A stretch of DNA of 30,728 bases, taken from the IMG/VR virus record IMGVR_UViG_2695420871_000006, one strand, 5' to 3'. The position numbers and the translations under genes are program-made. The notes under the pieces are model-generated. The model was not told the DNA's origin. It saw only the letters and a program-made list of their open reading frames with translations, and made no database searches. Shown here piece by piece: positions 1-18,636 of this stretch. The DNA comes from a virus. Lineage: Duplodnaviria; Heunggongvirae; Uroviricota; Caudoviricetes. Positions within the stretch are counted from its first letter, which is position 1. Every line of letters begins with the position of its first letter.

Positions 1-195
1 GAGCTGCATGACAAAGTCATCGGGCATTATCTGAACATAAAACACTATCAATAAGTTGGAGTCATTACCGGCTGGCGGAGCCTTCAGTCTATTTTAATGC
101 CGCCAACGGGCCGTGGAGAATTGCTCTGGCCTATTATCAGGAAGGGCCGGTAGATTATAGCGCGGGTAAACGTGGAACGTGTATAGCGCGGCGAT

Positions 196-309: not shown

Positions 310-1047
310 TCATTCACTCTCTTTCAAACCAGTTTTAACTGTTTGTGGTTTTGGGTAAGGCTGGACTTTGAATAGCTTTGTGTTAAGGCGTTTTCTGGCT
401 CTCTTGTCCAGAAACCGGATGTAACGAAACTGACGGAATTTATGAACACTGGCTCTGTCGATATTAGCCCGCAGATGTTCACCTCGCTGTCCTCCTCGTT
501 TGATTGCATTCTTGCAAATCTCGTGATACCACTCGCCATCAAGTTCATAGAATGTTGTTTCATGACTGCCTACATAATCAAAATTGCTTGCCTGGTACAC
601 GACACCAAGACAGCCACAACGCTCATCTGCAAACGACTGAACCCACTGCACCTGCGGATAAAGTTGTCTGATTAGTTTGAGCGCGTAACTGATTGCCCTT
701 GATTCAGAGTTTCTCGGCATACAGTCATGCAGCCATAACCGGTTAAGCTCCATATATTCGCGGTTCTGCGTGCCAGTTACGACGCGTGCACCATTGTTTG
801 GATTAAGGGCATAACCCCATTGCATTACGCCAACCAGCTCCCGTTCTGAAAATATGCCCAGATGAAGGTAGGAATTATTTACGAAACGATGGCTGTAATG
901 TTTATTGACGACGACCAGCCGGGCCAGCCAGCAACTTATTGTCTCAACCCGTAACTCACGGGAGCCATAACCGACGATATTGTCGTTATAGTGAATAAGT
1001 TCAGGCGTGCTGATGATACGGGATGTAACTTGCTTTCTGTTCCCCAC
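310..1047 (-). CDS. mom: Mom-like DNA (adenine) modification protein, anti-restriction. Start uncertain: GTG at 1045-1047 is proposed, but the frame is open up to 1242.
   Basis: Large ORF overlapping and immediately downstream of com, and the last gene before the phage end as in Mu. The proposed GTG lies in the 3' arm of a hairpin with AAGGAAA in the loop. Confidence 0.7.
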
Positions 1048-1201
1048 GACAGGATTTCCTTGTGTATGTGGGGTGCTCTGTGGCGCTCTGAGATGTGATT
1101 TGATTGAGGGTTTTACAGCGCGGACATTTAACTTCCAGATAACTGAAGCTGGCTCGTGCCAGTAGCTTGTTACAATGTCGGCACCGTATGTTTCGATACA
1201 T
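1001..1201 (-). CDS. com: Com, zinc-finger translational activator of mom (about 66 aa from ATG 1199-1201; the track ORF extends to a TTG at 1246)
   Basis: Protein [34 protein letters not shown]... has a CxxC...CPRC zinc finger resembling Mu Com as recalled from memory. AGGAGG (revcomp of 1212-1217) lies 10 nt upstream of the ATG. Confidence 0.8.
1042..1073 (-). promoter_or_regulatory. mRNA hairpin (CCCCAC, 20-nt loop, GUGGGG) sequestering the putative mom GUG start and SD; candidate Com-responsive translational switch
   Basis: Perfect 6-bp GC stem read from the sequence. Matches the established Com mechanism of unmasking the mom translation initiation region. Confidence 0.5.
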
Positions 1202-1248
1202 GGCCGCATAACCTCCTGCTTTGTTGTTGATATCTTTATCACTCAATC

Positions 1249-1885: not shown

Positions 1886-1920
1886 CAAACCGGCAGAGGA
1901 CACCACCGGTTTGTATTGTT
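1886..1920 (+). terminator. Hairpin CAAACCGG (12-nt loop) CCGGTTTG followed by TATTGTT; candidate intrinsic terminator for the plus-strand ORF 1458-1751
   Basis: 8-bp perfect stem plus a U-rich tail on the plus strand. Confidence 0.4.
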
Positions 1921-2173
1921 ACATCATGGTACTGTCAGTTCCGGGCTGAGCCGGGTCTGGTTGCTCTGGCTGCGCGTCGGTTTTCGGCTCATTATCAGCA
2001 TCACTGGCCGCAACTGCTGGCCCAATAAGTTTTGCCAGCACTTCATCAACGTAAGTGTCGATTTGTGCCTCAAAATCCTTGCGGACCTGCGCTTTCAGCA
2101 ACTTATTTACTTCACCGGAATACAGTGCCTGTTTTACCAGGTCTTCAGTGACGGTGCCTTTAATTTCTGGCAT
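1919..2173 (-). CDS. Hypothetical small acidic protein, 84 aa, with Pro/Gln-rich C-terminal tail
   Basis: ATG 2171-2173 with AGGAGG (revcomp of 2180-2185) 6 nt upstream. Estimated net charge about -8. Confidence 0.6.
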   Translation of the reverse strand: MPEIKGTVTEDLVKQALYSGEVNKLLKAQVRKDFEAQIDTYVDEVLAKLIGPAVAASDADNEPKTDAQPEQPDPAQPGTDSTMM

Positions 2174-2208: not shown

Positions 2209-2391
2209 TCAGGGCTGGGTCGGGTCTTTTGGGAGCGGAGTTACCTGCGCTGTTTTACTGAGTTTTTCAGCTGCTGCGTCCTCAATTTTGCGGCGAACAT
2301 AATTTCTGATGGCCTTATAACCACCACTCACCAGATATAACGCACATACTGCCGTGCAGAAATACAATAAAATAAGCTGTAAAAATGTCAT
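2209..2391 (-). CDS. Hypothetical small membrane protein, 60 aa from ATG 2389-2391: one N-terminal TM helix followed by a basic segment
   Basis: GGAGGG immediately upstream of the ATG. Hydrophobic FLQLILLYFCTAVCALYLV followed by KAIRNYVRRK (positive-inside). The track TTG start at 2403 is less likely. Confidence 0.6.
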   Translation of the reverse strand: MTFLQLILLYFCTAVCALYLVSGGYKAIRNYVRRKIEDAAAEKLSKTAQVTPLPKDPTQP

Positions 2392-2406
2392 TATCCCTCC
2401 CAATTA

Positions 2407-2535: not shown

Positions 2536-4590
2536 TTACGCGTTATTCACTTCCACCACGATACTGTCAATCAGTACCGGGTAAGTCGCATTTTTAGTGA
2601 TATCGGTCACGCGCAACTTGTCTGCCGTAAACGTGCCGACCGGAGACTGCGACAGCATGAATGGTGTCCCGTCCTTACCATCAATGACCGGCGTCACCTC
2701 AATACTGTTGTTACCGGCAAAACGGAAGCCCAGCGTATGCCATTCGTTATTAAATGCACCGAATGACCCCAGTTTCGTGTTTTGCGCCGTATTGCCCTTG
2801 TGGTACATCACGTTAAGGTCTGTGGCATCGCTCTGTACATAGAATGACGCCAGCAAGTTATGACCTGAATTACCTTCCAGCATGACACCCTGAGGCAGTG
2901 AAGAAACCGGCCAGTATAGCGCCAGTGCATACCGATTAGCCGTAAGCGCACCATCAAGTTTAAAACGACAACTGACAAGACCGCCTTTACCCAGGAGGTC
3001 TGCGCCATTACCAGCATCATGCTCAAGGTACCAGGAGGCTCTTCCTGTTTCCTTGGTCAGTTTCATTGCCTTACCCCCGCTGGCTCCGGCATCATCCACG
3101 ATTTGAGCCTTGCCACCTCCGGCAGCCCAACCCTGTGGTGTCAACCGTCCTTCAGACTCAGATGCCCGGTAAGCAAATAGCGTACTCATCGTCGTGGTGT
3201 CTGCGGGTGGCGTGGACGGTTTTGATGGTGTATCAGGTGACGGCTTCTCATCCGGTGGTGTCACGGTCTGCCCGCGCATCAATTCAGCCGTGCGCCCTGC
3301 ATGGAGCATAATAGCTGAGGCCAGACGGTCTGAAATGACGCCCCTGCGTGCCCATGAGCTGAAATGGCTGTCACGCTGTGTCGAAACAAAACTGCCCTGG
3401 GTTCGGGATGCTGCACCGTAATACCCGACAGCCACAATATCCGGGTCTTCCGCCGGAGCATTCGTTGGCGTGCTCTGTCCATTCTCATCCGTCAGGAACG
3501 GTACAAAGAAAATTTTCTGTGCTTCCTTGCCTTTGTAGCCACCGTATACTGCCTCATATTTATCGGTGCCAGCGTTTTTCCAGTAATACGTGGTATCACC
3601 GCAAATCCACGGCACCGTGGTGGCATTTCCACTCACGCACTGCGCAGCAAGCGGAGCCAGGTCAGTTCTGAACTGCTGAACCATGGCCGTGAATAAACTA
3701 TTATGCTGCTGGCTTCCTGAGGCAAGGTCTGCCTCTCCCTGCATCCAGACCACAGCCAGAAGTTTGTTTTTCGGGTTTTTCGCCAGCGCGACTTTGGTGC
3801 GGCTTACCAGGTCCTGATACAGAGGTTTACCGGCCCCCCAGCGTGAAGAATCAGCGGAAGCACCGCTGGCCTCACTGAATGAGCCGTCGGCTCCAGTGGT
3901 GAATGCTGACCCGCCACGACAACAGGGCACCAGAAGTATCCCCGCATTCTGTGGGATATAGGGAAGCAGTTTTTTGGCAATATGCAACCCCTGACTGACA
4001 GTCCCGTACTGGCCTTTTGCCAGATCAGCTTTCGGGTGGTTTATCCCGCTCATATCCTGAACATCATGCAGGCAGTGGTCTGCCGGAATGATGTCGTTGT
4101 ATGTACACGACGTACCGTTGGGCGTTACCGTACTGCGGCGTGCCAGTTGCTTAATGCGTGGGTCCGGGCGGTCAAACGAATCCGGTAACGGCAGCCCCTC
4201 GCCGTAGGCCATGCCATTTGACTGACCCGCGAGAATGACAACAAAGTAATATTCCGGCTCTGAACTGCTGCCATTCGTGCTACCGGAAGGCCCGGCGTTA
4301 TCCGGTGCATTCCAGTCGGAGGGCGTGAGCGTTCCGGCCACGTCAGATGTGATTGGAATGATGCCAGTCACGCCTGAACTGGTGATTTCTGCACTGGGAT
4401 TACCGGATACCGGCATTACCCATAATGGCTCTTTCGTGCTGAAGCGGATCACGCAGTCTGCGAAGGTGATCCCCCCTTTATTACCCGAAGGGCGGAAAGG
4501 GCTTTCAATAAATGCCACCGTGCCACCGGCAACCTTGACTGAAAACTCTCCGGGCATGGCGGAGAGCATTTTCCACTTGGAGTCTGACAT
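2536..4590 (-). CDS. Prophage cargo carbohydrate O-acetylesterase (SGNH/SASA family, NanS-p-like sialate O-acetylesterase) with N-terminal domain, Pro-rich linker and C-terminal lectin-like domain; 684 aa
   Basis: Motifs LAGQSNGMAYG, CCRGGSAF and VVWMQGEADL match the GQSN / WxQGE(S/A)D signatures of the sialate O-acetylesterase family. Linker PPDEKPSPDTPSKPSTPP. Sits downstream of tail fibre genes as nanS-p genes do in EHEC prophages. Confidence 0.65.
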   Translation of the reverse strand: MSDSKWKMLSAMPGEFSVKVAGGTVAFIESPFRPSGNKGGITFADCVIRFSTKEPLWVMPVSGNPSAEITSSGVTGIIPITSDVAGTLTPSDWNAPDNAGPSGSTNGSSSEPEYYFVVILAGQSNGMAYGEGLPLPDSFDRPDPRIKQLARRSTVTPNGTSCTYNDIIPADHCLHDVQDMSGINHPKADLAKGQYGTVSQGLHIAKKLLPYIPQNAGILLVPCCRGGSAFTTGADGSFSEASGASADSSRWGAGKPLYQDLVSRTKVALAKNPKNKLLAVVWMQGEADLASGSQQHNSLFTAMVQQFRTDLAPLAAQCVSGNATTVPWICGDTTYYWKNAGTDKYEAVYGGYKGKEAQKIFFVPFLTDENGQSTPTNAPAEDPDIVAVGYYGAASRTQGSFVSTQRDSHFSSWARRGVISDRLASAIMLHAGRTAELMRGQTVTPPDEKPSPDTPSKPSTPPADTTTMSTLFAYRASESEGRLTPQGWAAGGGKAQIVDDAGASGGKAMKLTKETGRASWYLEHDAGNGADLLGKGGLVSCRFKLDGALTANRYALALYWPVSSLPQGVMLEGNSGHNLLASFYVQSDATDLNVMYHKGNTAQNTKLGSFGAFNNEWHTLGFRFAGNNSIEVTPVIDGKDGTPFMLSQSPVGTFTADKLRVTDITKNATYPVLIDSIVVEVNNA

Positions 4591-4894
4591 CGTCTTTTCT
4601 GCCTGTTTCTGAATTAAACAGAGTCAGAATAACAACCGCTGATAAATATGTGTTTTGCGGAAATTCAAAAAAAGCATCACGGTACTTTTTGTGACGGAGC
4701 CGGTTAGGCAGGAACATAACGACAAAGGATGGACAGGCCAATACGATAACCGCATATTACCGGCTTATAATTGATTTAACGATTCATGACGCTGCGGTCA
4801 GCATCTGAAAATATGCGTTATTTCAGAAACCCCTTGCCTGTATATGGCGATATTATTATTCCTGTTTTTATCATTGATTTACATGGTGATGTTT

Positions 4895-5416
4895 ATGCAA
4901 CTGATTAATGTTAAACGATATTACCCGGAACAAAAACCCTTTGGTAATGATGTACAGTATTTTCAAAGTGAAGATGGTAAGGATTTCTATGAGTCCCTGC
5001 CATTATTCACCAAAAAATATAAACTTTGCATAACCCCTGACAGCGGTGTTATCTGCTCAATATCACAGGATGCTTCGGCGCTGTATCCTGCGGGTTTTTC
5101 CGTTGTTGAGACAGACGAATTACCTGAAGGTACTGATATTTCAGGTAACTGGAAGTTTGATAATGGTGTCATCTCACAACTCCCGGTTAACTATACCAAA
5201 AAAGCGGAAGCACTGCGCCAGTCATATCTTAATCAGGCATATGAAAAGATTAATGACTGGAGAACTGAGTTACAGCTGGGCACGATTAGTGATGAAAACA
5301 GAGCTGCGCTTACACGATGGATGAAATACATCAGTCAGGTGAAAAAAATGGAACTACCAGCGATTAAAAACAAAGCTGAATTTGACGCCATTAAATGGCC
5401 GGAGAAGCCTGAATAA
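4895..5416 (+). CDS. Tail fibre assembly chaperone (Tfa/U-like), opposite strand to the fibre gene; start at ATG 4895 proposed (track ORF starts at 4844)
   Basis: C-terminus ...TRWMKYISQVKKMELPAIKNKAEFDAIKWPEKPE is typical of Tfa proteins. The gene is AT-rich by eye. Confidence 0.75.
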   Translation: MQLINVKRYYPEQKPFGNDVQYFQSEDGKDFYESLPLFTKKYKLCITPDSGVICSISQDASALYPAGFSVVETDELPEGTDISGNWKFDNGVISQLPVNYTKKAEALRQSYLNQAYEKINDWRTELQLGTISDENRAALTRWMKYISQVKKMELPAIKNKAEFDAIKWPEKPE

Positions 5417-5419
5417 CAT

Positions 5420-5442
5420 AAAGGGTGCTTATCGCACCCTTT
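5420..5442. terminator. Bidirectional intrinsic terminator between convergent tfa (+) and tail fibre (-): AAAGGGTGC (5-nt loop) GCACCCTTT with flanking A/T runs
   Basis: Perfect 9-bp palindrome with a GC core, T-run downstream on both strands. Confidence 0.6.
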
Positions 5443-5450
5443 TCCTTTAA

Positions 5451-6362
5451 TCAGACGGATGAAACTGTGCGCCAGGCATTACCGATATATATCTGCACCG
5501 GACGGTAATAAACGCCTCCGATATTATCGGCTGAACTTTTCCCGGTATCCTGCACGTTAATACCTGAAAGCATACAACCAGAAGGTGCACCATAACTCCA
5601 GGACATTTCATTACCTCCGGGTGAATGGTAACTCTGGGCACCAAGCTGAACGTTGCTAACGTATTTGTTATCAGCAGTAGCTTCAGTCATACCGGAGGTA
5701 ATGTATATGTCCTGCGTCCCGTCAAAAGGAACGCCATTAATATTTCTTGGGGTGGAGAGTTTATTCGCGGCAACGGCGGTGCCGTCCGATGGCAGAGCAT
5801 TCGCCGCCTTATTCACCGTTTCCCGTAAACCGACGTTATCGATAAAAGCCCCTTTATCCGGAATGTCTGCGCCGTTCTGCTCCCTGCGCAGGTAACGGTT
5901 ATCACCTTCGCTTTTGCTGTAAACATCCAGATTATTACGGGCGGTTCCCTTATTCTCCAGGTCGGCGAGATTCTGATCCTTCGCCAGGGCATTAACGTCA
6001 CCGGGACCAAGACTGTTTTTTGTGGCAAGCGTCCCCAGACCAAGATAACCACGGGCCAGACGCTGGGCCTCCGCACCGGCATCAGCAATTTCTTTCAGGT
6101 TATTTTTCCGGGAAAAGGCATTCGCAGCGATAATGGCTTTAATGGACAGCGTAAGCTGGTTTAACTGCGCCTTATCCGGCTGAATACTGGCTTCAGCCAG
6201 AATATTCAGCAGTTCGGCCTGGAGAATATTCAGCCAGTCCTGACCAATCCAGCTGATACCTTTTTGTCCGTCACCTTCGGTAAACCAGGTTGTGGTATTA
6301 CTCTGCGCCGGTGCCAGCGCAGGCATATTCGCCACGCCGGAATTATTATCAACATGAAACAT
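5451..6362 (-). CDS. Tail fibre protein (Mu S-like), 303 aa
   Basis: Follows the baseplate gp47/gp48 homologues. Conserved fibre N-terminus MFHVDNNSGVANMPALAPAQS... and a Gly/Ser-rich tip. Confidence 0.8.
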   Translation of the reverse strand: MFHVDNNSGVANMPALAPAQSNTTTWFTEGDGQKGISWIGQDWLNILQAELLNILAEASIQPDKAQLNQLTLSIKAIIAANAFSRKNNLKEIADAGAEAQRLARGYLGLGTLATKNSLGPGDVNALAKDQNLADLENKGTARNNLDVYSKSEGDNRYLRREQNGADIPDKGAFIDNVGLRETVNKAANALPSDGTAVAANKLSTPRNINGVPFDGTQDIYITSGMTEATADNKYVSNVQLGAQSYHSPGGNEMSWSYGAPSGCMLSGINVQDTGKSSADNIGGVYYRPVQIYIGNAWRTVSSV

Positions 6363-6922
6363 TAAATAGTCTCCTCTTCATGGCTGTTTGCATAAACGTA
6401 AATAAACGTCTGCCATGCAGGCTTATAACGGTTCAGAATACATTCCAGCGCACCGCCTTCATAAATACGCAGCGGCGTGAGAATATCATCCAGCACATTC
6501 ATATTCCGGTAGCCGGTTTCACTGTTAATCGTGACAATACTGACCCACAGCGAATCCGGTGAGGGCTGAATGTCAATCTGATAACCAAACTCCGCCGCAA
6601 ACCGGATATAAAATTCACGGTTCAGCGAGGGCTTCATCCGGTATTTATTTCCGGCATAACGCTGTCGCTCCGTGAGGGTGGCTCCGGCCATATCACACTC
6701 GGGAAGCCCGAGATAACGCTCCCAGTCTTCCAGCAGCAGGCGCGACGTGTCAGGGAAACGCTCGGCAAGCAGCTGTTTACCCGTCCAGGATACACGCGCT
6801 GTCGAATGACTGAGGCCCAGACATAATGATGCCAGTACGGATGACGGACGCTTGTCCCATGCCAGCCCGTCAGGCAGTAACTGCAACAGGGCGCGCTGAT
6901 GTGGGGTCAGGGTTACAGCCAT
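6362..6922 (-). CDS. Baseplate/tail protein, Mu gp48-like (DUF2313-type)
   Basis: Position between baseplate J and the fibre; overlaps the upstream gene. Confidence 0.7.
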   Translation of the reverse strand: MAVTLTPHQRALLQLLPDGLAWDKRPSSVLASLCLGLSHSTARVSWTGKQLLAERFPDTSRLLLEDWERYLGLPECDMAGATLTERQRYAGNKYRMKPSLNREFYIRFAAEFGYQIDIQPSPDSLWVSIVTINSETGYRNMNVLDDILTPLRIYEGGALECILNRYKPAWQTFIYVYANSHEEETI

Positions 6923-7995
6923 GTGATTTCTCCCACCGTCAGCAGCTCACTGTCTCCCGCCTGAACTGACGTCAGCGGACTGCGCACTTCAAAATCCTCC
7001 AGATTTTTCACCCCCGCCACAGCACGCCAGAAAGACGACGGCAGAACCAGACCGCCGGGCCGGGATTCGTTGTATAACAGGTCGGTCAGCGCCTGTTTTA
7101 CGGCCGCCTGATTCTCCGGTGTTTTCGGGATGATCCTGATGCTGAAGGGCACCGGCTTATTGGTCAGTTTAAACACGGTCACCGTCGGCCCCAGAGGCTG
7201 TCCGACAGGCTGGCCGGTCGCCGGATCATCATGACTGCGGATATAATCCGCCACCCGCTGAACATCACCGTCACCGGGGAAAATATCCGGGTTATTATCC
7301 TGAACAAACGTTACCCCCACGCTGCCCGCCTGCGGCCATTCCGGGCGGCACCATGCCCGCGTTACGCCCGGCACTTCACGCGCCCAGCGTTCAAAATCAT
7401 ACTGCGTGCCGCCGGACGGTGGATTCTGCACCCGGAAAACCAGACGGGAAAGCAACTCCGGCACGGTTTCCACATCCGCACCACCGGTGATCCCCGTTCC
7501 GGTCACCGTGGCCGTCTGGTTGATCCCCGCCTGCGGTGTGATAAATGTCAGTTTTGTCCCTGCCGGGGCATTCCCCGCACGACCGGCACTTTCGGCTTCC
7601 ACACTGACATTCAGCGTACCGGCCTTACCGGTCAGTGAGGTGGTGATACGGTAAACCACGCCATCACTTCGCTGGAGAAGCACACCTTCCTTGATCCCCG
7701 CATCCGTGGTCAGCATCAGCTGAACCGGCCCGTCCCCCCGAGAGGCAGGCTTACGCATGACGCCCCAGAATGCACAGTGTTTCAGCAGTTCGGCTTCATC
7801 GGCTTCGGTCGGGATGATCTGACGCGCAATCCAGGCCAGATGCTCATGCTCCTGAGCAGATAACCCTGCCTGAGCGTAAGCAATGGCATTCAGGGTGGTT
7901 TCATTCACACCCGGCTGCGAGCCGGGCAGGCGCTGGCTGATATCCTGCTGTGTCTGCGTGATTAACTGTGCCAGCGGTAAAGGCTGATAAGGCAT
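6913..7995 (-). CDS. Baseplate J-like protein (Mu gp47-like)
   Basis: 360 aa; synteny; TAATG stop/start overlap with the upstream gene. Confidence 0.8.
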   Translation of the reverse strand: MPYQPLPLAQLITQTQQDISQRLPGSQPGVNETTLNAIAYAQAGLSAQEHEHLAWIARQIIPTEADEAELLKHCAFWGVMRKPASRGDGPVQLMLTTDAGIKEGVLLQRSDGVVYRITTSLTGKAGTLNVSVEAESAGRAGNAPAGTKLTFITPQAGINQTATVTGTGITGGADVETVPELLSRLVFRVQNPPSGGTQYDFERWAREVPGVTRAWCRPEWPQAGSVGVTFVQDNNPDIFPGDGDVQRVADYIRSHDDPATGQPVGQPLGPTVTVFKLTNKPVPFSIRIIPKTPENQAAVKQALTDLLYNESRPGGLVLPSSFWRAVAGVKNLEDFEVRSPLTSVQAGDSELLTVGEITWL

Positions 7996-8432
7996 TACTC
8001 CCCCTTAAGATCAGCATAAAAAATCATGGGCCTCACTGAACCATCAGGCAGGGTTATGCGCACCGAAAGCGCCAGCCGCGCGTGCCCCACACGTTCTGCA
8101 TGACAGACCACGGATGACGCCACGCCATCCTGACTGAGCCAGCCCAGCGCCTCATCCGCATAGGCACGGGCACGGCTTATCACGGAGGCCAGCGTTTTTT
8201 CCCGGCGGAGAAGCCACAGACGGGAGCCAATGGGACGCGGGCGAAAACTGTCTCCCCACCATCCCCGGCGGTCACGCGTACCGTCAGGGATTTCATCCGA
8301 TGCCAGCGCCCGGCGGTCAGTAAACAGCGAAATCAGAACGGCCGTCAGCAGACTGTCATCCGTCAGCAGGTCGGCACCGTTCAGTTGCAGCGAACCGCAC
8401 CCCTGATCCCATACAATTGCAATATCAGCCAT
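7995..8432 (-). CDS. Baseplate wedge protein (Mu gp46-like, GPW/gp25-like); start at ATG 8430-8432 (track ORF extends to 8576)
   Basis: MADIAIVWDQGCGSLQLNGADLL... is typical of GPW-family proteins. The longer upstream extension overlaps the previous gene. Confidence 0.75.
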   Translation of the reverse strand: MADIAIVWDQGCGSLQLNGADLLTDDSLLTAVLISLFTDRRALASDEIPDGTRDRRGWWGDSFRPRPIGSRLWLLRREKTLASVISRARAYADEALGWLSQDGVASSVVCHAERVGHARLALSVRITLPDGSVRPMIFYADLKGE

Positions 8433-9039
8433 TCTCCGGCGCTCCTGTCTTACTGCCTTTGCCGTTATCCTGATGCACATGGCCGGAATAGGTGATCCCG
8501 GCAATAACGGCATCAGACATCGTGAACAGCCCGTCTGATTTACCTGTACCATCAAGCACGAAATTACCCTTAACATGCAGGTTTTTATCCACCGTCACAT
8601 TGCCCGTAAAGGTGGCCTCCGGCGTATCCACCCGCATCCCCTCATCGGCGTAAATCTCCAGCATTTTGCATGTCACAATAATGCGACCATCCTTTGTTAA
8701 CCGTATCCGGTGCCCCTCATGGTGATACACCCCCGTATCTCCGGCTGTGAGTCCGGTCGGGCGGCTGCGCCGGTCTTCCACCACAAGCACCACAGTCTGA
8801 TCCCGCTGTCCGCCCAGACAGGCAAAAAAGGTTTCCGCACCCGGCAGGGGAACGCTGATCTGCCCGTACTGCTGGGGACGCTCCACATCATCAAAGGTTT
8901 CGCCGTCCATGCCGGTGAGCTGCACATTCTGCATTTTCAGTTCGTCATGTGTGCCGGTCAGAACGCCCCGGCCAAACAACAGGCGAATACCGCGCGTTAC
9001 CGGGGCAATCAGGCGGCTGAACACTTCATCATTCATCAA
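8425..9039 (-). CDS. Baseplate assembly/spike protein V-like (Mu gp45-like)
   Basis: 204 aa; synteny. Confidence 0.75.
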   Translation of the reverse strand: MMNDEVFSRLIAPVTRGIRLLFGRGVLTGTHDELKMQNVQLTGMDGETFDDVERPQQYGQISVPLPGAETFFACLGGQRDQTVVLVVEDRRSRPTGLTAGDTGVYHHEGHRIRLTKDGRIIVTCKMLEIYADEGMRVDTPEATFTGNVTVDKNLHVKGNFVLDGTGKSDGLFTMSDAVIAGITYSGHVHQDNGKGSKTGAPENG

Positions 9040-10153
9040 AGCTGATCCCCTGTTTTTTCATCTGCTGGCGAATAAAGGCATCAACATCGTCACCGGAACC
9101 ACCCCGGCCCTTACTGTCCGGCTCTGCCGGAACGATAAAGCCGTCACGCGGTGCCAGTACCAGCCGGGTGACTTCCCCGTTATGTTCATCAAGTAAAAAC
9201 TCTACCTGACAGACCAGCAGTTCAGTCTGTTCTATACCGAAACGCAGGGCTGAAACACCGGTCAGCAGATTGACATCCCATAACCGGCCATCATCCCGGA
9301 ACCAGCCACGCACGGTGGCAGAAAACCGTTCTGAACGGGCAATCGCACGGCGCATTTCACGCAGGGCACGCTGCCGTGCACCGGTGGTGTCTGTCTGTTG
9401 ATCGGCGAGGATGATTTTCGGCCGGTAGCGGCCGATCTGCTCATCACTGATGACGCCCACAGGTGCTGCCAGACGGGCGGCGGATTCGCTGTCTCCCCGT
9501 TTGCCACCACCGCGCCCGTGTCCCCGGACACGGTATTCGCTGTATCGTCCTCGCCAGTCCGTGTTGTAATCGGCATCAAGCAGGTTATCTCCCAGCACCA
9601 GTCTGTCCGTCTGCTGGCTTCCTGCCTGGGTGAACACCAGATCGCCGTCAGCATTACTGGTCACCAGCACCCCGCGATGCCGGGCAGCACGGGTCAGCGC
9701 ATCCGCCACGGTTTCTGAGTTTTCCAGCGTAAAAGAGCTGAAGGGGCGTGCAGCCGTGTCGTCGTTAACCTGCCAGCGCACGGCTATCCCGAAGGGCGCA
9801 CATAAATCTGCGGCAATCTGTGCCAGCGTCCGGTTGCGCCACTGGCTGCCGGGATGGATGGCGGCACAGTCCACCAGGTCGCCGGTTTTATCCCGACCGC
9901 TGATGCTGATCTGATGACGGGTTGCACTGATCCGCTGACTGACCTGATCCAGCCAGCCACTGATGACCGTCTGCCCGTTAATTCTGAGCGTCAGGGACTG
10001 ACCGGTTCGCAGGGCTGAGGGGATGCGCTCACCGGGCAGCATCAGCCCCAGTTCAAACGACCCGGCCAGATGCTCCAGCGAGCGACGGACGCTGACCGTC
10101 AGCCAGCCGGAAAAAATACTGCCACCGATATACAGTTCAATCCTGCTGCTCAC
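9029..10153 (-). CDS. Baseplate hub / late control D-like protein (Mu P, gp44-like)
   Basis: 374 aa; synteny after the N-like protein. Confidence 0.75.
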   Translation of the reverse strand: MSSRIELYIGGSIFSGWLTVSVRRSLEHLAGSFELGLMLPGERIPSALRTGQSLTLRINGQTVISGWLDQVSQRISATRHQISISGRDKTGDLVDCAAIHPGSQWRNRTLAQIAADLCAPFGIAVRWQVNDDTAARPFSSFTLENSETVADALTRAARHRGVLVTSNADGDLVFTQAGSQQTDRLVLGDNLLDADYNTDWRGRYSEYRVRGHGRGGGKRGDSESAARLAAPVGVISDEQIGRYRPKIILADQQTDTTGARQRALREMRRAIARSERFSATVRGWFRDDGRLWDVNLLTGVSALRFGIEQTELLVCQVEFLLDEHNGEVTRLVLAPRDGFIVPAEPDSKGRGGSGDDVDAFIRQQMKKQGISFDE

Positions 10154-11495
10154 TGATCACCTCCACGCTGCGGCCACCCGGAACAAAAACCGGATCGGGG
10201 ATATTGTTTCTGCGGACAAAATACTGCCAGCGACTGCTGTTGCCGGTGGCACGGTACAGCGTGACCAGTGCCGGTTCGGTGGTGCGAACCATGACCTGAA
10301 AAGCACCGGGAAGATGCACGCTCCGTGTGGTTAAATCTTCTGTCAGCGCAAGCCCTGCATCACGTAATGCAAGGGCAGTCCCGGTATAGCCCTGTGCGGA
10401 CAGATCCAGCACCTGTTGTTCCATGGCATCGCTCAAATCCCGGTTGATACGCTGCACATCAGCAGAACTTTCCAGCCAGGCCAGTCCGCCCGAACGGTCA
10501 GTATCCTGAACGTGCGTCGTATTCTGCCGGATGACCTGATCCAGCAGTTTTCCGAGCGTCTGTGCCTGCGACACCAGGGTTGCACTCTGCATCACGCTCC
10601 GCAGCAGACGGATATTTTTCTGTGCCGCAGGCGTCAGGCCAATCAGGCGCTGTGGATCATCCTGTTCGCTGAGGGTGTAACGCAGGGAGGAAAGTGTGCG
10701 GTACAGCTGCGGCATGGCCTGCTCTGCTATGCTGTCACGGTTTGTGGTCAGGCTGCCGGACGGCGTTCCGGCTTTTCCGGTCAGAGACAGGGAAGGATCG
10801 CCGGGCAGCCCGGTCAGCACGGCAAACATTCCGGCCAGCGATTCAGCCATGCGACGGGGCGCATTAATCAGGGCGGCGGCATTGCCTTTCAGGGCAGTAA
10901 AACTGGCCGTAAAGGCACTGATATCCTGCACAATCCCCATCCCCGAAACGGCATTCTCCAGTGCATCAATCTTATCGCTGATGGTGTCGGTCATGGCCTG
11001 TACATCATGCAGACCGTCTGAAATCACCGTCCAGCCGTCTGAAAGCGTGTTAAACAGCTGATTCATTGCTGAGCCGCTTTTCTGCTCCAGCGCAGCTGCC
11101 GTATCTTCTGCCACCGCAGGGGCGGTATCGTCACTGGCGGGGATCACGTTGATCGTGAACTCAACCGTTCCCTGCTCGCTGGCGTTATAACGGCTTTCAA
11201 AGCTGTTTATCAGCACGTTTAACGTGCCGTAATCCGGGTGCATCAGTTCACCGGCACCGGGTGCACGCAGCGCATCACGCAGGCGGCTTCGCTGTGTCTG
11301 AAGATCGTCTCCGGTCACCAGAACCGTGAATGTGAACTCCGGGAGTTTTGGCCCCAGATCATCCGCACCGCCGCTTTCACGCAGTGGGTATTCACGGCGC
11401 ACAATGTTACGTCCGCCCCGTTCCCGCTGCTCCTGATAAACCAGGAACGGTACGCCACGAAAGGAGCCACGCCCCGGCGTGTCAGTAGAGGCCAT
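10137..11495 (-). CDS. DNA circularisation protein N-like (Mu gp43-like)
   Basis: 452 aa immediately downstream of the tape measure gene. Confidence 0.7.
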   Translation of the reverse strand: MASTDTPGRGSFRGVPFLVYQEQRERGGRNIVRREYPLRESGGADDLGPKLPEFTFTVLVTGDDLQTQRSRLRDALRAPGAGELMHPDYGTLNVLINSFESRYNASEQGTVEFTINVIPASDDTAPAVAEDTAAALEQKSGSAMNQLFNTLSDGWTVISDGLHDVQAMTDTISDKIDALENAVSGMGIVQDISAFTASFTALKGNAAALINAPRRMAESLAGMFAVLTGLPGDPSLSLTGKAGTPSGSLTTNRDSIAEQAMPQLYRTLSSLRYTLSEQDDPQRLIGLTPAAQKNIRLLRSVMQSATLVSQAQTLGKLLDQVIRQNTTHVQDTDRSGGLAWLESSADVQRINRDLSDAMEQQVLDLSAQGYTGTALALRDAGLALTEDLTTRSVHLPGAFQVMVRTTEPALVTLYRATGNSSRWQYFVRRNNIPDPVFVPGGRSVEVISEQQD

Positions 11496-17688: not shown

Positions 17689-18636
17689 TTACAGATAATC
17701 CGCGACAACCAGCTCCAGCTTGCCCTTCATCTCGTTAGAGACGGTGGTGTTACCGTCCGCGAACAGCTCGCGCTCCAGCAGCTGCACCGCCTGTTTTTCC
17801 AGCGAGGTGGGGACAACAATATGGGTGGGTTTGATGCCGAGTTTGCGGCCACCGTCAGCCTTAAAGTCACGCATGGCTGACCAGCCGTGCCACAGCGCAT
17901 CCAGCGTCAGCGGTGACTGCATCATGTAGGCCATCTGCCAGAAGCCGTAGCCCACATTGCGACGGGCGGAAGCACCGAACACAAACTCGTTATCAGTAAA
18001 CGCACGGCCTTCATCGACTTTTGTCTGGGCAACCAGTTCGGCCTTGCGGCGATCCTGATAAATCAGCGGTTTTACCGCGCGGGAGCAGTCAAGCAGATAC
18101 CAGGCCGGGCCGCTGTAATCCGCCTGTGCACCGACAGAGCCGGTTTTTGCCACAAACATATTGCTGACCATCTGTGCATCACCGGAGCCATCCACTTTGG
18201 GGTAAACAGGGTGTTCGGTATCAAAGAAGTTCTGGCCGTCATAGCAGGCCGCATTCAGACCATCACGCAGTGCAGCAAAGACCAGTTCATCCGGTTGTGC
18301 CGCCGCAGCGCGCCCCATCTCCTGGAACAACGGGGAGTAGATGCCAAGATTGTCGTCTTCAAAGTCATCGCGGCTAATAGCAACGGTGCCTTCAAAGGTT
18401 TTGTTCACGATGGCGTAGCCATAGGCTTTCATCTTCTCGATGACGCGGGAGCCGATCCACTCACGGAACTGCGGGAACTGCCCCAGCCAGCCGTAGGTGT
18501 TGGATTTCGACGTGGACGGTACGGTCATCGCAATTTTCTGGTACTGAGACGGAGCCATGGACATCCCGGCCTGAAAATCAGAACGGTAGCCCGTCATCAG
18601 GGCGGTGATCATCGCCGGTGTAATCGGGGTAGGCAT
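17689..18636 (-). CDS. Major capsid protein (Mu T-like)
   Basis: 315 aa immediately after the protease/scaffold gene; a GC hairpin (17663-17681) follows its stop. Confidence 0.85.
   Translation of the reverse strand: MPTPITPAMITALMTGYRSDFQAGMSMAPSQYQKIAMTVPSTSKSNTYGWLGQFPQFREWIGSRVIEKMKAYGYAIVNKTFEGTVAISRDDFEDDNLGIYSPLFQEMGRAAAAQPDELVFAALRDGLNAACYDGQNFFDTEHPVYPKVDGSGDAQMVSNMFVAKTGSVGAQADYSGPAWYLLDCSRAVKPLIYQDRRKAELVAQTKVDEGRAFTDNEFVFGASARRNVGYGFWQMAYMMQSPLTLDALWHGWSAMRDFKADGGRKLGIKPTHIVVPTSLEKQAVQLLERELFADGNTTVSNEMKGKLELVVADYL

Follow-up and report, generated by a model that had tools for sequence, protein, structure and literature searches.

A predicted NanS-p-family O-acetylesterase with a rare N-terminal domain, carried in a cassette of a Mu-like prophage

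The gene described here occupies positions 2536..4590 on the minus strand (−) of a 30,728-nucleotide sequence of a Caudoviricetes virus (IMG/VR record IMGVR_UViG_2695420871_000006), which holds a Mu-like prophage and is called the window below, always at its full length. Its product is a 684-amino-acid (aa) protein of three modules, which was assigned as a NanS-p-type sialate/carbohydrate O-acetylesterase from the list of open reading frames (ORFs) together with Pfam, PHROG, and Protein Data Bank (PDB) matches. We read it as a NanS-p-family enzyme that resides in a cassette of a Mu-like phage, would be released at lysis, and carries an N-terminal domain acting as a phage-specific module; the probability of this reading as a whole is put at roughly 0.8. 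Public databases contain a 100% identical Shigella sonnei protein (P0006), annotated as "sialate O-acetylesterase".

The esterase ORF is intact, with an ATG start and 684 codons, and its product matched PHROG 143 with an E-value of 2e-295. A pseudogene or a chance ORF was ruled out by this intact frame and by a ratio of nonsynonymous to synonymous divergence (dN/dS) of about 0.1 or lower. The esterase domain was delimited to residues 112–430 (3301..4257, −) by its motifs and by alignment with the E. coli NanS/YjhS structure (PDB ID: 3PT5), which covers residues 110–428 at ~65% identity (E 1e-116). The Pfam family SASA (PF03629) was matched by residues 117–312 (E 4e-13), for which the 49.8 bits obtained exceed the gathering score of 24.8. 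The 3PT5 alignment places Ser124 and His409 on the chain residues 30 and 312 of 3PT5, which mutagenesis identified as the catalytic Ser and His of NanS (summarized in PMC10017367). SGNH blocks were located as GQSN (122–125), CCRGGS (223–228), WMQGEAD (282–288), and RDSHF (406–410, of which DSHF is 407–410); these variants are identical in type to the ones of NanS and NanS-p, and Gly226/Gly227 as well as Asn125/Gln284 occupy conserved SGNH block positions. A first-pass annotation, made from the letters of the window only, had proposed a 684-aa ORF with GQSN, GGS, and WMQGEAD motifs and an SGNH/SASA esterase fold. All of these motifs are present, and the fold is supported by the PF03629 match and by the 3PT5 alignment that keeps both the Ser and the His.

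Reading on from the esterase domain, a Pro/Ser/Thr-rich interdomain linker (residues 431–468; 3187..3300, −), identified by inspection of the sequence, leads into a C-terminal lectin-like jelly-roll module (residues 469–684; 2539..3186, −). The solved C-terminal domain of a phage NanS-p (PDB ID: 6YP6) aligned to residues 469–683 of our protein with an E-value of 2e-98, and DUF6645 (PF20350) was matched by residues 533–650 (E 9e-67, 223 bits). For the C-terminal domain that the phi24B protein vb_24B_21 carries, the residues Y510, Y515, Y540, and F611 were proposed as a sugar-binding site (PMC10462455). Their counterparts in the 684-aa protein are Y554, Y559, Y584, and F654, so that the four aromatic residues are kept. 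The Pro-rich linker followed by a carbohydrate-binding, lectin-like C-terminus that had been anticipated from the letters is accordingly recovered, with a C-terminal domain of ~216 aa. The full-length single-sequence AlphaFold model was uninformative (predicted local distance difference test score, pLDDT, of 31), and solved homologues exist for both large domains. Because both of them match solved NanS and NanS-p structures, the 684-aa protein is assigned to the NanS-p family as far as its two large domains are concerned. Lambdoid-prophage NanS-p enzymes cleave Neu5,9Ac2 as well as acetylated mucin glycans (reviewed in PMC8065619). The present protein is likewise expected to be active as an esterase on both kinds of substrate, given its ~65% identity to NanS and its identity of up to 93% to lambdoid alleles.

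The N-terminal domain is the unusual portion of the protein. Its residues 1–95 (4306..4590, −) are predicted to form a small all-β, cupin-like barrel in place of the DUF1737 domain of other NanS-p proteins, and a Gly/Ser/Pro-rich linker (residues 96–111; 4258..4305, −) connects them to the esterase domain. The first-pass annotation left the N-terminal ~110 aa unassigned, and they stay so with respect to sequence families, as no match was found in Pfam, NCBIfam, or the PDB. A profile search of the PDB with the N-domain gave only chance-level matches to IF2 (E ~0.8), comparison of structures revealed no similarity to any decoration or adaptor protein known so far, and no paralogue was detected when the full length of the window was searched with it by tblastn. 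Structure prediction for the N-domain goes one step beyond the sequence search in offering the cupin-like β-barrel, a fold we hold with moderate confidence and consider unrelated to DUF1737. The latter family (PF08410), which had been named among the domains to look for, is absent from the 684-aa protein at E <= 0.01, and hhalign of the N-domain profile against the DUF1737 profile returned a probability of 0.2%. According to its published description, DUF1737 consists of one helix and a sheet of three strands (bioRxiv 10.64898/2026.04.10.717836). A DUF1737 domain that diverged past recognition was excluded by the different length, the different predicted secondary structure, and the hhalign probability, and the N-domain is regarded as a non-homologous replacement.

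This N-domain is rare: it was seen only in fusion with a NanS-p esterase, and the prophages concerned are Mu-like ones from E. coli/Shigella and Salmonella. When residues 1–109 were used to search 1.84 billion representative proteins exhaustively with HMMER, only fragments of the same protein and one Salmonella enterica protein were retrieved. The Salmonella homologue is 29% identical, is truncated by the end of its contig, and consists of the N-domain followed by the GQSN start of the esterase. A homologue search with the N-domain alone yielded fragments only, to which a profile search added O157-type and Salmonella fragments; the same kind of profile run against genome contigs, with one genome per species, found nothing. 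A second E. coli type of the N-domain, 61% identical, belongs to a Mu-like phage that has integrated into Stx prophages of O157. Among 5426 complete E. coli genomes, N-domain DNA is carried by 32, the esterase body by 1291. IMG/VR contains 34 loci with the N-domain, all belonging to the two E. coli N-domain types. The N-domain is under strong purifying selection and is more conserved than the catalytic domain: in comparison with the allele of E. coli STEC299, its nonsynonymous (pN) and synonymous (pS) differences were 0.005 and 0.31, corresponding to a dN/dS of 0.012, as against ~0.11 for the esterase domain. For the C-terminal domain, dN/dS is about 0.1.

Domain-by-domain identities together with a single lambdoid DNA block indicate that, within E. 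coli, lambdoid and Mu-like phages exchange the enzyme body with each other, and that the N-module stays with the phage type. The esterase domain (112–430) is 93% identical to P0028, a lambdoid allele of the DUF1737 type, and 69% identical to the O157 Mu-type allele; for the C-terminal domain (469–684) these values are 90% and 73%. The N-domain (1–95) behaves in the opposite manner, with 9% identity to P0028 and 61% to the O157 Mu-type allele, and across the DUF1737-type alleles its identity ranges over 9–18%. The Pro-rich linker 431–468 is 100% identical to that of the DUF1737-type alleles P0036, P0063, and P0065. At the DNA level, the lambdoid nanS-p locus L007 shares with the window one continuous 2-kb block (window 4258–2257, 87.5% identity). 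It begins at residue ~111, which is the junction of the Gly/Ser/Pro-rich linker and the esterase domain, crosses the stop codon, and ends inside the following DUF1378 gene. Protein similarity to lambdoid alleles is lost N-terminal of residue ~110, so that DNA and protein alignments agree on a putative recombination breakpoint at the 3′ edge of this linker. The L007 locus, which is the context of P0028, has the order Q, nanS-p, DUF1378, DUF826, holin, lysozyme, and Rz1.

Two further alleles were observed in this comparison. The Mu-type allele of E. coli STEC299 (L006 4168–6300, 710 aa) has a nearly identical N-domain and a very divergent C-terminal domain (pN 0.48), which suggests that the C-terminal module is swapped independently too. 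In the P2-like phage vB_EcoM-569R5 (L005, Peduoviridae), a nanS-p-related gene was found beside lysis genes at 1–1251, at the end of a partial genome record, which indicates that the family is not restricted to lambdoid and Mu-like phages.

The Mu-like nature of the prophage, as stated in the first-pass annotation, was evident from Pfam matches in the window to Mu-like_gpT, Mu-like_Pro (protease I), Phage_Mu_F, Portal_Mu, GemA, Zn_ribbon_Com, and Mom; gpT is encoded at 17689–18636, the baseplate and fiber proteins at 5451–8576. E. coli S1-CAM-01-A and CI5 are examples of lysogens that carry this prophage. The esterase had been described as a cargo gene lying where Mu has its invertible G segment and gin, both of them missing. 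It is not an isolated cargo gene, since it travels with two downstream partners as nanS-p does in lambdoid late regions. These are a DUF1378 gene for a small membrane protein, predicted to be single-pass (2209..2403, −; Pfam E 1e-31), and a DUF826 gene (1919..2173, −; Pfam E 6e-16). The order esterase, DUF1378, DUF826 is kept in all Mu-type loci examined and in the lambdoid L007. That DUF1378 and DUF826 always come after nanS-p in lambdoid and Mu-like phages suggests a three-gene functional unit. On its far side, the cassette is bounded by the com-mom operon of the right-end module (310..1246, −; Zn_ribbon_Com and Mom in Pfam, PHROG 1384 and 6417).

Nor does the esterase take the place of the G segment and gin, as the relatives of this prophage demonstrate. 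Some 20 sister prophages of E. coli share one arrangement, in which the tail fiber is followed by a G-type invertible segment, a gin-type recombinase, the esterase, DUF1378 and DUF826, then a small ORF read from the other strand, and finally com and mom. The O157 Mu-like phage is arranged alike, and a Salmonella Mu-like prophage agrees as far as the contig reaches, its esterase being situated downstream of both the G segment and a resolvase. In these relatives, the esterase is located downstream of an intact G-like segment and a gin-type recombinase, and upstream of com-mom. Since this order recurs in E. coli, O157, and Salmonella, the cassette appears to be an old insertion between gin and com-mom, old enough to be common to N-domain types that are 30–60% identical. 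A recently captured, one-off cargo was ruled out, because the locus is common to three diverged Mu-like lineages.

The claim that the G segment and gin are absent holds in that no functional copy of either is left, and fails in that remnants of both persist. Alignment with the sister prophage L002 identified a 3′-terminal remnant of a gin-type invertase gene, ~68 bp long, that ends in a deletion junction (4677..4744, −); identity with gin-bearing relatives includes the last ~67 bp of gin and stops at window position ~4744. Beside it lies a tail-fiber assembly (U′-like) gene in inverted orientation, a leftover of the G-type segment (4844..5416, +; Pfam Caudo_TAP E 1.5e-20, PHROG 136). Most of gin, and a fragment of the variable part of the fiber that is represented in L002 by a partial "phage tail protein" coding sequence (CDS) beside gin, were lost from the window. 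In L002, inverted repeats of 86 nt and 50 nt flank the G-type segment (8920–9068 and 10104–10252). The window has retained no inverted repeats of comparable length, its longest pairs measuring 14–24 nt at 71–93% complementarity. The gin-less form was found in several strains with diverged esterase alleles, and its place in the chromosome varies (bcsA, xdh, and other sites), which points to a transposition-competent sub-lineage rather than one-off decay. The gin-less state is thus best read as a secondary deletion common to this sub-lineage.

Several features of this region were recorded in addition. The invertible segment of L002 spans ~1.1 kb and holds one chaperone gene and one alternative fiber C-terminus, which is smaller than the S-U/U′-S′ layout of Mu. 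The tail-fiber gene of the window (5451–6362, −; 303 aa) is not accompanied by a chaperone gene in the same orientation, and the only assembly gene faces the other way. A promoter-like site (4730–4758, +) is located just upstream of the inverted chaperone gene, and a hairpin (5420–5442) lies between the convergent fiber and chaperone genes; a hairpin after the gin remnant was not significant (z −1.1).

From these results, the following course of action can be proposed. The SGNH/SASA domain would hydrolyze O-acetyl esters by its Ser124–His409 pair, and the C-terminal jelly-roll lectin module would keep the enzyme on sialoglycan or mucin substrates. No hydrophobic N-terminal segment was found in the protein, whose maximum Kyte–Doolittle value was 0.92 (averaged over 19 residues, first 50 positions of the scan), and therefore no Sec signal is present. 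Because there is no signal peptide, an extracellular substrate could be reached only by lysis, and the enzyme would leave the cell when the Mu-like phage lyses it. Once released, it would take the 9-O-acetyl group off Neu5,9Ac2-type sialic acids and so make them usable by sialidases and the Nan pathway of E. coli/Shigella. The cassette of esterase, DUF1378, and DUF826, which also occurs in lambdoid Stx-type phages, is stably sited between gin and com-mom in a lineage of Mu-like phages, and the N-domain may be a phage-specific assembly or attachment module.

What the N-domain does can be viewed in several ways. The protein may be a pure moron that is released on lysis and never enters the virion, serving as a public good for surviving lysogens on O-acetylated sialic acids, with an N-domain for oligomerization, solubility, or glycan binding. 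We consider this plausible, if short of even odds. It has to face what is reported for phi24B gp84, a structural NanS-p protein: DUF1737 is its capsid-binding module and docks as a hexamer on the capsid hexons, full-length gp84 was detected in fresh virions, and the enzyme is cleaved off later (bioRxiv 10.64898/2026.04.10.717836). The position homologous to the N-domain is hence a capsid anchor in a full-length protein that is structural. The stronger conservation of the N-domain than of the catalytic domain (dN/dS of 0.012 versus 0.11) also speaks against a moron of this sort, as does the restriction of the N-domain to this one esterase among all proteins searched, which would be unusual for a generic oligomerization or sugar-binding module.

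The same observations lend themselves to a virion-displayed enzyme, in which the N-domain docks the esterase on gpT capsid hexons or on the baseplate/fiber, so that the particles bind and de-O-acetylate sialoglycans of mucus or acetylated glycans of the bacterial surface. Virion display is a tentative idea, drawn from the analogy with DUF1737 of phi24B gp84. It is consistent with the strict occurrence of the N-domain in Mu-like phages, at a fixed locus in three diverged lineages, with the strong purifying selection on it, and with the flexible Gly/Ser/Pro linker that follows it. In equally tentative terms, the N-domain might be an undescribed virion-docking module for gpT-type particles, a non-homologous stand-in for the DUF1737 anchor of lambdoid/podoviral Stx phages. 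Against display stands the lack of structural likeness of the N-domain to any known decoration or adaptor protein, and its restriction to Mu-like phages is explicable by a lack of upstream homology for recombination.

A receptor-modifying enzyme, acting as a tailspike-like O-antigen/capsule deacetylase at adsorption or as a superinfection-exclusion factor on the lysogen surface, is improbable and the least supported of these roles: the gene does lie just downstream of the tail-fiber/G/gin region, its SGNH core weakly matches the "tail protein" phrog_25867 (E 1e-6), and such a role was raised for NanS-p (PMC8065619), but the surface of an intact lysogen is out of reach of a protein with no signal peptide or membrane segment, which makes the superinfection exclusion suggested in the first-pass annotation unlikely, the protein shows no trimeric β-helix, fiber-like region, or similarity to a fiber N-terminus, and its catalytic domain is ~65% identical to the sialate-specific NanS.

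We therefore retain the lysis-released NanS-p-family esterase with a phage-specific N-module, and note three points that weigh against it. The substrate specificity of this allele is extrapolated from homologues at 65–75% identity. The mechanics of recombination might by themselves, without functional constraint, account for the coupling between the N-domain and Mu-like phages, because homology is lacking upstream of the gene. Lastly, a search upstream of the esterase gave neither a convincing sigma-70 promoter nor a convincing terminator, where promoter scores did not rise above the shuffled expectation and Mu C-dependent promoters were not searched.

The right end of the prophage contains some other features. 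A 97-aa ORF (1458–1751, +) between DUF826 and com is conserved in related prophages, where it is annotated as hypothetical (WP_000571916.1), and it matched nothing in Pfam, PHROG, or NCBIfam. Closely spaced GATC sites just upstream of com (1247–1300, −) resemble the Dam/OxyR-controlled mom promoter region of Mu. Window positions 1–181 consist of an IS1 terminus joined to ompG sequence, representing the host flank of the right end; the prophage end thus falls between about 182 and 310, and the IS1 flank fits the IS1-rich background of Shigella/E. coli.

In lambdoid phages that carry Shiga toxin, NanS-p esterases are held to be accessories serving fitness or virulence. The same enzyme-plus-lectin body is found here in a Mu-like, transposable phage from E. 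coli/Shigella, with signs of recombination with lambdoid alleles. If the N-domain were an anchor, nature would have performed a swap experiment for the phage display of glycan-modifying enzymes, with a bearing on gut-mucus interaction. Selection for virion display of a mucin-sialoglycan deacetylase would then have acted independently in lineages of enterobacterial phages that are not related, and anchor modules would be swappable in the manner of tailspike head-binding domains. If it is not an anchor, the gene is one more well-annotated nanS-p allele. Either way, the range of hosts and phages of the NanS-p family becomes wider, and domain-level gene conversion between unrelated phage types is indicated.

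In the literature searched, there was no description of nanS-p in Mu-like phages and no mention of DUF6645, and the present protein was therefore compared with systems that resemble it in part. Lambdoid NanS-p has the SASA/SGNH and DUF6645 domains, the Pro-rich linker, and the downstream DUF1378/DUF826 in common with it. It differs in its DUF1737 capsid-binding module, which is exchanged here for an unrelated ~95-aa predicted β-barrel, and in its location between stx/Q and the lysis genes, whereas the window gene is flanked by the gin remnant and com-mom, not by Q and holin. The 684-aa protein likewise lacks the anchor that characterizes capsid decoration proteins like phi24B gp84, a DUF1737 hexamer docking in the pore of the hexons. 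NanS/YjhS is alike in its catalytic fold, Ser–His pair, and block motifs, but, encoded in the nanCMS operon, it comprises one domain only and has neither the N-terminal nor the lectin-like C-terminal module. Likeness to esterase tailspikes is confined to the PHROG match of the SGNH core, and a search of the 684-aa protein for a fiber-like region, or for N-domain likeness to other ORFs of the prophage, found none.

Mu and SfMu agree with the window in the modules of tail, baseplate, fiber, com, and mom and in their order. In SfMu, however, the gin–mom PCR product measures 1.5 kb, so that an esterase cassette would not fit between these two genes. Mu is not known to have room for such a cassette at this place either. 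Relative to both phages, the window has additionally lost gin plus half of the invertible segment. The closest counterpart in architecture is the O157 Mu-like homologue (LC727881, LC727895; Sp18-type), a 680-aa protein with the same three modules, including the N-domain, in the same locus order of gin, esterase, DUF1378, DUF826, com, and mom. Yet it is only 66% identical overall, and the esterase and C-terminal body of the window protein is nearer to the lambdoid alleles. The enzyme is already named in databases; the novelty is modest and appears to consist of a rare N-module of the Mu-phage type on a NanS-p body, rather than a new kind of system.

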